Of a stretch of 51,671 bases of DNA, positions 36,001-39,000 are shown piece by piece. Source of the stretch: a virus (taxonomy: Duplodnaviria; Heunggongvirae; Uroviricota; Caudoviricetes). The stretch lies in the IMG/VR virus record IMGVR_UViG_2718218104_000010, one strand, 5' to 3'. Within the stretch, counting starts at the first letter, position 1. Every line of letters starts with the position of its first letter. The position numbers are program-made.

Positions 36001-39000
36001 CGCAGTGCCAGCACAACACCATCGCGCCGGTACCGTAACGATGTATGACAGTTTCGCTGTGATGATAATCACCATGAGGCCACTGGCAGGATTTCACGTG
36101 ACGTAATAACCAGTCAGACAGTGCACCAGCGCCACCCGCAGCACGGATCACCCGCTCATCGCTGAAAAATGGCAGTAGTGATTTATCTTCCGCCAGCGGC
36201 TGGTGAACGGCAGGTACAACCCCGGACGGCAGAGCTCGCATGCTTTTTGGTTCCGGCTCCACCAGTATTCTGCCGTTATGGAATGCTGACATTGATTCAC
36301 GGCCTGGCTTAACGATAACCAGACCGAGTTCCGGTACCAGAACAGGTCGAAGTAATACCCGCACATTACCTCCAGATCCGTTGCTGGAATGTGCGGGACG
36401 GACGCGGTGGCCGTTCGGAGTAAGGGAGCCTGACGGAGATTATCCAGTGACGGTAGTCGAGGCTAAGGGCTTTTTTAACCTCGCATCCGCGCCTGCGGTA
36501 ACACTGAATGAGCCATTCGGCCTGTTCTTCAGTGCATGGGGGATGCTGGTACCAGTCAGATTTGAATGCGTGAAAACACCGTCCGCGCCTGCTGGCAAAG
36601 ACGGCAGAATCATCAGAATTGTATAATTTGGTATCGTGCGCCATCGGTTGTCTCTGCTGGCGCAGCAGGTGCCAGTTGTTCAGGCTGGCGTGCGAATTGT
36701 AAACCAGAATGCCAGGAAAAAACAAAACCCGCCGAAGCGGGTTAAGTGCGGGTGCGTTGAGGATGCCTGATTCATCAGAGGTGGCGAGGGATTTCTCCCC
36801 CGCCAGGTCTCTTACTCCTCAGGTTCGTAAGCTGTGAAGACAGCGACCTCCGTCTGGCCGGTTCGGACTCGTACCTCGCAGAGGTCTTTCCTCGTTACCA
36901 GTGCCGTCACTATGACGGTTAAACAGATGACGATCAGGGCGATTAACATCGCCTTTTGCTGCTTCATAGCCTGCTTCTCCTTGCCTTTCGGCACGTAAGA
37001 GGCTAACCTAGATTTGCCGTTCATAGATTGAGCCTCAGATTAATGTTAGGCGTCTTGCAGGACGCGTAATGTTAACTGGGGCTTTTCTCTATCTGCCGTT
37101 GGTGTTCATGCCCGAGGCAGATAGCCTCAAGCACCCGCAGCTATTCTACTTAACTTCCCATTACCTCGCCAATATGAAATCGGTCAGAAAGACAGACGTC
37201 CCATAAGGACAACAACGGAAAAAGAGATTTTGCTTGATGCTATTTACCTCTGCACCATGAAGTTGCGCCAAAATCCCAGTGGTGATAACAGGAATTTGGT
37301 TGTTGGTGATTGGGGAAAGAAGTACGTTAGACTGTGGGTTAGTTCATTGACATGATAGTTACCTGCCTTCAATTTCCTAAGCAAGCGATGTAAACGATAA
37401 TCAATATCAAATGTATTGACAGGTAAAATAATAACGATGTACCTTTGCTGATAACATATATCAGTCTTAAATCATAATGGAGGTAGATAAAATAACTAAA
37501 CACACACAACAAATTTTTTATCAGTGACATGAACCGCCCCGGGTTTCCTGGAGAGTGTTTTATCTGTGAACTCAGGCTGCCAGATCATCGTTTCCGATGG
37601 AAGCATAATAAGCTTTTTCTGCTTCTGCCGGAGGAGTATGGCCCAGCCTTCCCAGCAATCGTCGATTGTTATACCAGTCCACCCACGTTAGTGTGGCCAG
37701 TTCCACTTCTGCACGGTTTTTCCAGCTCTTACGGTGTATTACCTCCGCTTTGTAAAGACCATTGATGCTCTCAGCCATCGCGTTGTCATACGAGTCGCCT
37801 GTACTCCCTGTTGATGCCAGTAATCCGGCTTCTTTTAGTCGCTCCGTATAGGCCAGTGACACATACTGAGAGCCTTTATCGCTGTGATGGATGGTGCCAG
37901 ACGGACGACGGGCCCACAACGCCTGCTCCAGCGCATCCAGCACGAATGTCGTTTCCATAGACGATGAGACCCGCCACCCCACGATGTATCCGGCAAACAC
38001 ATCAATGATAAACGCCACATAGACGAAGCCCTGCCATGTGCTGACGTAAGTAAAATCAGCCACCCACAGCTGGTCAGGTCGTTCTGCCACGAACTGACGG
38101 TTTACGCGGTCGCCTGCGGCAACGGCTTTCCGGCTGATGGTCGTACGGACCTTTTTACCCCGGAGAACACCGGCAAGTCCCATAACCGCCATGAGACGTG
38201 CCACTGTACATCTGGCCACCCTGATTCCTTCCCGTAACAACTGACGCCAGACTTTACGCACACCGTACACCTGATGATTTTCATCGTATACGCGCTGTAT
38301 CTCTCTCTTCAGCCAGTCGTCGTGCTGCGCACGGGCACTGCGTTTATCCGGATGATGTCGCTGTTGCTGACAATGGTAATACGTTGACGGGGCAATATGC
38401 AGTTCGCTGCATACCGGTCCGACCCCGTACTGCTCACGCAGCTTATCCAGCAGTGGCATCATTTTTTCCAGAGGCGGTCGAACTCCGCCTTCGCAAAATA
38501 AGCGGAAGCCTGGCGAAGGATATCGTTACTGCGGCGCAGTTCACGATTTTCACGTTCCAGCTCTTTCAGACGCTGACGTTCAGCGCTGGTGAGCCCACCA
38601 TCACCGCCCCCGGTATCCCGCTCATGCTGGCGAACCCAGACACGCAGAGTCTCCGGCGTACAGCCAATCTTTGGGGCAATGGAACAAATTGCCGCCCACT
38701 GTGAGTCATATTCATCCTGACTTTCCAGAACCATACGAATCGCCCGCTGACGGACTTCGGGGGAAAAACGAGTATTTTTAGTCATCCTGTTTACCTCTTT
38801 CTCAGGGAGTTTAGTCTCCAGGATTTCCGGGGCGGTTCAACATAGCATATCTTAAGCATCCTTTAATGCTCATGGGGAGAACGCATGACTAAACATATGG
38901 ACATTCATTGTCAAACACGCATATTTAACTCAATTAACCATGACACCAAATATAAAATATGTATTTTTACTCCAAAAAACATTAAAAAAAATAATGCAAC

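Follow-up and report, generated by a model that had tools for sequence, protein, structure and literature searches.

hok/sok is a textbook type I toxin-antitoxin system, and its founding example is the hok/mok/sok (parB) locus of plasmid R1. hok genes are over-represented in prophages, and strains of Escherichia coli O157:H7 carry 12-14 of them (PMC2887945). A described relative is hokW-sokW, from prophage Sp5 of the Sakai strain and from Stx2-converting phages, for which an antisense transcript, the toxicity of HokW and the antitoxin activity of SokW have been demonstrated experimentally (Takada et al. 2021, PMC8621323). E. coli K-12 carries hokD (relF), in the cryptic prophage Qin, and hokC/mokC/sokC (gef). 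Here we describe a locus of this kind in a 51,671-nucleotide stretch of tailed-phage DNA (class Caudoviricetes; IMG/VR record IMGVR_UViG_2718218104_000010), which we refer to at its full length as the window. The locus is very probably an intact hok/mok/sok type I toxin-antitoxin module; it is carried by a lambdoid prophage of E. coli O157:H7 and lies between the antiterminator gene Q and the replication genes.

The module is structurally complete with respect to its sequence elements, its predicted folds, its conservation and covariation, and the identity of its sok promoter with that of sokW. The full locus spans approximately 36716-37172. The Rfam family RF01794 matches 36962-37136 on the minus strand over the full model (positions 1-157) with a score of 105.6 bits (E = 4.8e-23), compared with a gathering score of 59, far above what chance would produce. 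Searches of the window with tblastn and blastn recovered this single hok copy and did not find a second one. A first-pass annotation of this DNA had placed a hok/mok locus at 36812-37120. The locus is indeed there, but that interval is too narrow, as it leaves out the last 16 nt of the 5' end of the mRNA, the hok promoter (37143-37172), and the 3' untranslated region (UTR; 36716-36811) with its fold-back element and terminator.

The module is of an already known kind, and public records of hundreds of O157:H7 genomes already name the window copy hokD. One of them, E. coli O157:H7 strain 9234 (NZ_CP017446.1), matches the window at 100% identity. In this strain, as in other O157:H7 genomes, the 51-aa gene is labelled "type I toxin-antitoxin system toxin HokD" (WP_000813263.1) by the Prokaryotic Genome Annotation Pipeline (PGAP). 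The O157:H7 records with this HokD label carry an annotation for neither mok nor Sok. The window copy adds little that is new to the system, and the practical value of the analysis lies in better annotation, as positions can be given for the mok frame, Sok and the regulatory boxes where RefSeq names only the 51-aa toxin gene.

Like the window copy, hokW-sokW lies in a lambdoid O157:H7 prophage and combines a Hok of 51 aa with an in-frame mok of 70 aa (PMC8621323). The 420-bp locus is ~93% identical between the two, and the 5' end of the mRNA, the stem of the translational activator (tac), the ucb box, the sok promoter and the Sok hairpin are identical or nearly so. They differ in the C-terminus of Hok (VFTAYEPEE in the window, VFVDYESEK in HokW), at residue 34 (valine in the window, isoleucine in HokW) and in genomic position, as hokW adjoins an EaA-like gene whereas the window copy lies between replication genes and Q. 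The toxin of K-12 hokD is identical to the window Hok at 50 of 51 residues. The two loci also share the same fold-back inhibition (fbi) element and terminator, a downstream DUF968/ydfU gene and the same PGAP name. In K-12 (NC_000913.3, 1643800-1646300), however, everything upstream of the hok Shine-Dalgarno (SD) sequence, namely the promoter, tac, ucb, the mok start and sok, is replaced by relB-relE. By this sequence comparison, the window copy is the complete form of the K-12 hokD locus, with its own regulation present.

The K-12 hokC/mokC/sokC locus has an in-frame mok of 69 aa and an annotated antisense RNA, sokC (59 nt), whose start lies 9 nt within mok. Conserved between this locus and the window are tac, ucb, fbi and the 3' end of Sok, and the Hok proteins are ~80% identical. 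The window Sok is longer than sokC due to an 18-nt insertion in its hairpin, and the K-12 copy has IS186 immediately downstream. The R1 locus, which resides on a plasmid rather than in a prophage, matches the window in its set of elements, in the predicted change from a full-length to a truncated fold, and in a Sok with a single-stranded 5' tail and a stem-loop. Its Sok measures 64 nt against ~77 nt in the window, where the hairpin is longer. Only ~44% protein identity has been reported between R1 Hok and the HokW type, and our comparison of R1 with the window draws on published descriptions of the R1 locus.

The toxin gene, the mok frame and a candidate editing site lie at the following positions.

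36812-36967, minus strand: hok toxin gene, 51 aa, ATG at 36967, matching Pfam PF01848
36812-37024, minus strand: mok reading frame of 70 codons, in frame with hok, with a 19-codon leader MNGKSRLASYVPKGKEKQA, taken from the list of open reading frames (ORFs)
36824-36831, minus strand: candidate TadA A-to-I editing site, the Tyr47 codon UAC in CUUACGAA, changing Tyr to Cys

The Hok peptide, MKQQKAMLIALIVICLTVIVTALVTRKDLCEVRVRTGQTEVAVFTAYEPEE, corresponds to the last 51 codons of the 70-codon ORF. It matches the Pfam family PF01848 (HOK_GEF) over all 42 profile positions (1-42) with a score of 79.4 bits (E = 1.5e-22; cut-off 22 bits), which, together with 98% identity to K-12 HokD, bears out the first-pass description of a 51-aa Hok-family toxin. 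One transmembrane helix is predicted at residues 6-24, with a hydropathy peak of 3.07. The membrane toxicity of the window Hok is probable by analogy with HokW and with the 98%-identical K-12 HokD, which has been reported to be toxic (10.1101/2025.08.07.668861). The protein has Cys15, Cys30 and Tyr47, and the site of Tyr47 is a cysteine in other Hok proteins, either DNA-encoded or via RNA editing. The mRNAs of hokC, hokD and hokE are edited by TadA (A-to-I, Tyr to Cys) at the position equivalent to Tyr47 (PMC12214031). The UACGAA around this codon is invariant in 26 of 26 and in 22 of 22 homologues in two alignments, and candidate editing of Tyr47 in the window Hok would create a second cysteine.

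An in-frame, mok-like upstream extension of hok had been noted on first pass. It begins with an ATG at 37024, 57 nt before the hok ATG, and its layout is the same as in K-12 mokC and hokW. The start codon is retained in 21 of 22 full-length homologues, but the frame relative to hok varies freely among them (in frame in ten, +1 in ten and +2 in two, with the +2 pair ending at the hok start), and we rejected the idea that an in-frame mok is a special feature of the window copy. Among close relatives, a single-base difference (GG-CAAGG versus GGTCAAGG) toggles mok between the in-frame and +1 states. In plasmid R1, mok is out of frame with hok. There it is a separate coding sequence overlapping hok (PMC9841398), unlike the in-frame mok of the window.

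The shared frame raises the alternative that the 70-aa protein is a real product, with mok providing a second toxin isoform beyond its part as a leader. A ribosome starting at 37024 must make a 70-aa protein that includes the whole of Hok, the same layout occurs in hokW, K-12 mokC and ten of the 22 homologues, and a "MokW protein" is annotated in some phage records. Nevertheless, we consider an isoform of this kind unlikely. The mok frame is not conserved, residues 2-5 of Mok are encoded by one of the most variable parts of the locus, and hok retains its own conserved AAGGAG SD and ATG. In R1, what counts is that mok is translated as far as the hok start, not the product made (PMC9841398), and the variable mok frame fits this published view.

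The hok mRNA structure rests on the following elements.

37143-37172, minus strand: hok/mok mRNA promoter, with -35 TTGGCG, an 18-nt spacer and -10 TAGAAT, from a promoter scan (9/12 consensus matches)
36716-37136, minus strand: full-length hok mRNA, ~420 nt, with putative ends (5' at the conserved GGGUGCUUGAGG, 3' at the U-run past the terminator hairpin)
37125-37136, minus strand: tac, the 5' end of the mRNA, GGGUGCUUGAGG, paired to fbi in the full-length fold and to ucb in the fold of the 3'-truncated RNA
37076-37083, minus strand: ucb or anti-SD box, AGCCCCAG, whose partner is the mok SD in the full-length fold and tac in the truncated one
37033-37038, minus strand: mok SD region, CUGAGG, with GAGG 8 nt 5' of the mok AUG, invariant in 22 homologues
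36999-37010, minus strand: dcb box, UAGGUUAGCCUC, which in the fold of the truncated mRNA pairs with the mok SD to give the Sok-target hairpin
36977-36982, minus strand: hok SD, AAGGAG, hidden in a local hairpin with GCCUCUU in the full-length fold, an invariant helix
36750-36762, minus strand: fbi element, CCUCAACGCACCC, forming 12 bp with tac, with one bulge
36716-36743, minus strand: intrinsic terminator of the hok mRNA, hairpin AACCCGCUUCGGCGGGUU plus UUGUUUUUU, from a terminator scan

In the alignments of homologues, the -10 box of the hok promoter is retained as TAGAAT, TATAAT or TACAAT, 7 nt ahead of a conserved GGGTGCTTGAGG. The full-length RNA (37136..36712) has a minimum free energy (MFE) of -175.6 kcal/mol, far below that of shuffled sequences (z = -7.5). 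When the 3' end including fbi is removed, tac switches to ucb and the mok SD switches to dcb in the predicted fold, forming a hairpin with the loop ACGGCAAA. The local mok SD/dcb hairpin (36995-37040) folds at -14.7 kcal/mol (z = -4.0). The first 36 nt of the nascent mRNA form a predicted hairpin of -18.8 kcal/mol (z = -4.3), which would correspond to the metastable structure reported for R1. The switch predicted here is the one described for the R1 mRNA, which also has a metastable nascent structure (PMC9841398; for the switch also PMC1635323).

Comparative analyses drew on 51 related loci from genome assemblies, together with the hokW locus of an Stx2 phage, a Rac-type phage locus, K-12 hokD and K-12 hokC. 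The structure was tested on an alignment of the 22 full-length homologues. Over these, 84.1% of the window MFE structure is paired, compared with 37-45% when the partners are slid by 1-3 columns. Changes on both sides are found for 31 pairs, a number matched by none of 500 shuffles. The tac/fbi helix is paired in 96.6% of alignment cells and contains two compensatory G-C to A-U pairs; the fbi/tac pairing that the first-pass annotation proposed to look for by alignment is thus present and covaries among homologues. The ucb pairing is found in 97% of cells and is invariant, hence without covariation. Covariation in the hok family has already been published (Gultyaev et al. 2000, as cited in PMC1635323). 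For the truncated form, tac/ucb can form in 97% and the mok-SD/dcb helix in 68% of homologue cells, with core pairs including GAGGC/GCCUC invariant. One close paralogue, L009 (E. coli ECMA0423, CP178302.1), has an intact Hok ORF but a mutated tac (GACTGCATGTGG) and a degraded tac stem, and looks like a decaying copy.

The state of this paralogue bears on a second alternative, that the window locus is an evolutionary relic, intact in appearance but silent in vivo or without harm to the cell, comparable to those chromosomal hok loci of K-12 that are disrupted or do not kill. L009 shows that decay occurs, K-12 hokD itself lacks a mok/sok leader, and the literature describes chromosomal hokA, hokB and hokC without post-segregational killing and several K-12 copies as inactivated. 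On the other hand, all elements in the window are intact and match the family consensus, the functional hokW-sokW has the same leader and sok promoter, and the nearby insertion sequence (IS) IS629 leaves the locus uninterrupted. The 521-bp locus is matched in 4,732 of 5,426 complete E. coli genomes, with a best match of at least 99% identity in 450 records, and it is 100% identical across many O157:H7 genomes. Furthermore, a single chromosomal copy of R1 hok is toxic without Sok (PMC9841398). A relic is on balance improbable, slightly more so than a separate 70-aa toxin isoform.

The reading of the locus as an intact module also requires an antitoxin RNA. The first-pass annotation expected a sok-like antisense RNA on the plus strand near 37000-37100, opposite the mok start, and had not been able to delimit it; it can be placed as follows.

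36981-37009, plus strand: sok promoter, with -35 TTGCCT (36981-36986), a 17-nt spacer and -10 TAACCT (37004-37009), identical in sequence to the sokW promoter region
37016-37092, plus strand: Sok antisense RNA, ~77 nt, with ends transferred by alignment from the annotated K-12 sokC non-coding RNA

The alignment of the sok promoter, which had been put forward as a check, gave hexamers identical to those of sokW. The predicted Sok consists of a single-stranded 5' tail, GCCGUUCAUAG, a long hairpin, and then UUUUCUCUAU with a U-run, with a fold of -35.6 kcal/mol (z = -5.5). Its complementarity takes in the start codon and SD of mok as well as ucb, and its 5' end complements the loop of the target hairpin predicted for the truncated fold, as for R1 Sok, in which the single-stranded 5' tail recognises the target loop (PMC1635323). 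The Sok interval lies inside 36964-37119, the fragment equivalent to a functional pACYC184-sokW clone. In the "pro-less" construct of sokW, primer YO-421 changes exactly the TAACCT -10 box, and this construct caused HokW-dependent growth retardation that was partly rescued by sokW in trans (PMC8621323).

RF01794 is named "sok antitoxin" and reports the wrong strand for the antitoxin RNA. Its consensus has tac at the start and the hok SD and AUG at the end, the orientation of the hok-sense leader, and we rejected the strand of the Rfam match as the antitoxin strand. A literal reading, which equates sok with the 175-nt segment 36962-37136 of the minus strand and assumes no RNA from the plus strand, draws on the minus-strand score of 105.6 bits against only 15.7 bits, at a shifted position, on the plus strand, but it is scarcely credible given the extent of the model from tac to the hok SD and AUG in the sense orientation of the hok mRNA leader, the position of annotated K-12 sokC opposite the hokC/mokC strand and its alignment to the plus strand of the window, and the sokW probes and clone, which place sokW antisense to hokW (PMC8621323). 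Sub-threshold Rfam matches in the 3' UTR and leader (isrK, with 27 bits versus a threshold of 50, rsmX, ceN48 and a CRISPR repeat) were dismissed as chance.

For the intact module we propose a mechanism that follows the plasmid R1 model; transcription and processing of the window copy we infer. A weak constitutive promoter would produce a stable mRNA of ~420 nt in which tac is locked to fbi. In this locked state, ucb would cover the mok ribosome-binding site and the local hairpin would cover that of hok, leaving the mRNA untranslated. Slow trimming from the 3' end would take off fbi, upon which tac would pair with ucb and the mok start region would refold with dcb into a hairpin. The loop of this target hairpin would be recognised by the single-stranded 5' tail of a short-lived Sok of ~77 nt, transcribed from the opposite strand. 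Pairing with Sok would stop the translation of mok, and that of Hok as well, because hok translation needs ribosomes reading mok, and the duplex would be degraded. Once Sok synthesis ends, the stable processed mRNA would be translated, and the 51-aa Hok would enter the inner membrane and depolarise or kill the cell. The behaviour expected of such a locus, with an unstable Sok, a stable processed hok mRNA, RNase III cleavage of the duplex and killing upon loss of Sok, has in part been shown for hokW-sokW.

By analogy with hokW-sokW, the most likely role of the module would be to promote lysis of the cell and release of phage once the prophage is induced, to stabilise the prophage, or both; phage exclusion is also possible. 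For hokW-sokW, mitomycin C led to RecA-dependent loss of SokW and to HokW production, and deletion of the locus halved phage release. In the window, hok reads in the same direction as Q and the replication genes, and early rightward transcription after induction would consequently cross the locus against sok. This makes transcription through the locus after induction a plausible trigger of Sok loss.

Several points weigh against an intact and active module with this role. The sequence fits a lysis helper, a prophage stabiliser and a phage defence system alike, and cannot distinguish between them. The chromosomal hok loci tested earlier (hokA, hokB and hokC) did not cause post-segregational killing, according to the summary given in 10.1101/2025.08.07.668861. 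The tac/ucb and mok-SD/dcb helices are invariant, which means that covariation lends them no support, and they are compatible with the model. A generic promoter and terminator scan missed both the sok promoter (7/12 consensus matches) and the Sok terminator, and Sok is thus delimited by homology. Finally, the NCBIfam Hok subfamily models score the window Hok below their curated cut-offs (48.4 versus 73), which implies that the PGAP name "HokD" must stem from another rule.

The Sok tail differs in its conservation from the remainder of the leader. Among eight close, nearly identical hokD-like paralogues, the segment 37010-37030, which encodes the Sok 5' tail and mok codons 2-5, has 67-71% pairwise identity compared with 94-96% in the flanking segments, and is one of the two most variable segments of the leader. 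Between the window Sok and SokW, 8 of 77 nt are different, six of them among the first 11 nt and two in the remaining 66. For the first 20 nt of Sok, predicted duplexes of this pair are -36.4 and -36.9 kcal/mol for cognate combinations, compared with -18.5 and -23.4 kcal/mol for non-cognate ones. We tentatively suggest from these sequence differences that co-resident hok/sok copies in O157:H7 may be insulated from each other through a varied Sok tail and a matching target loop, although we consider this less likely than not to hold. If true, silencing by each Sok would be confined to the cognate hok mRNA, leaving every prophage with a private addiction or lysis trigger and no cross-protection between co-resident copies. 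The window Sok and SokW provide a concrete pair for the question of cross-talk between co-resident prophage modules. We did not find the variability of the Sok tail stated in the literature examined, and it is mildly interesting; otherwise the locus offers nothing new of substance.

Downstream of hok, the minus strand carries a small hypothetical gene, followed by genes for a DUF968 protein, RusA and the antiterminator Q. Upstream on the minus strand are replication-type genes (for an ATP-binding protein, a DUF1627 protein and a DUF977 protein), and the opposite strand carries a gene for an alpha/beta hydrolase. These neighbours fit the placement in the nin region, between replication genes and Q, given by the first-pass annotation. 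An IS629/IS1203 element of 1,310 bp with the target duplication ACA occupies 37530-38839, lying 394 bp upstream of where the hok mRNA starts. Only two of the 5,426 complete E. coli genomes carry an insertion at precisely this site. We ruled out disruption of the locus by IS629, as the two are separated by 394 bp and the module is uninterrupted. In K-12, IS elements disrupt hokA, hokC and hokE.

The prophage is heavily colonised by insertion sequences. Three frameshift pseudoknots of the IS3 family (IS629), at 24127-24243 (plus strand), 29075-29191 (minus strand) and 38388-38504 (minus strand), reveal that the window contains IS629 in three copies. The ORFs at 20316-22649 resemble an IS66-family element in size and layout, for instance ISEc8, which the annotation of another O157:H7 strain places in its corresponding prophage; we regard them as a candidate for such an element. 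Other RNA genes in the window, at 31721-31911 (minus strand), 31991-32237 (minus strand) and 47186-47237 (plus strand), are a small RNA (sRNA) of the STnc100 family (138 bits), an adjoining cluster of three tRNAs, and the antisense sRNA DicF (76.9 bits).

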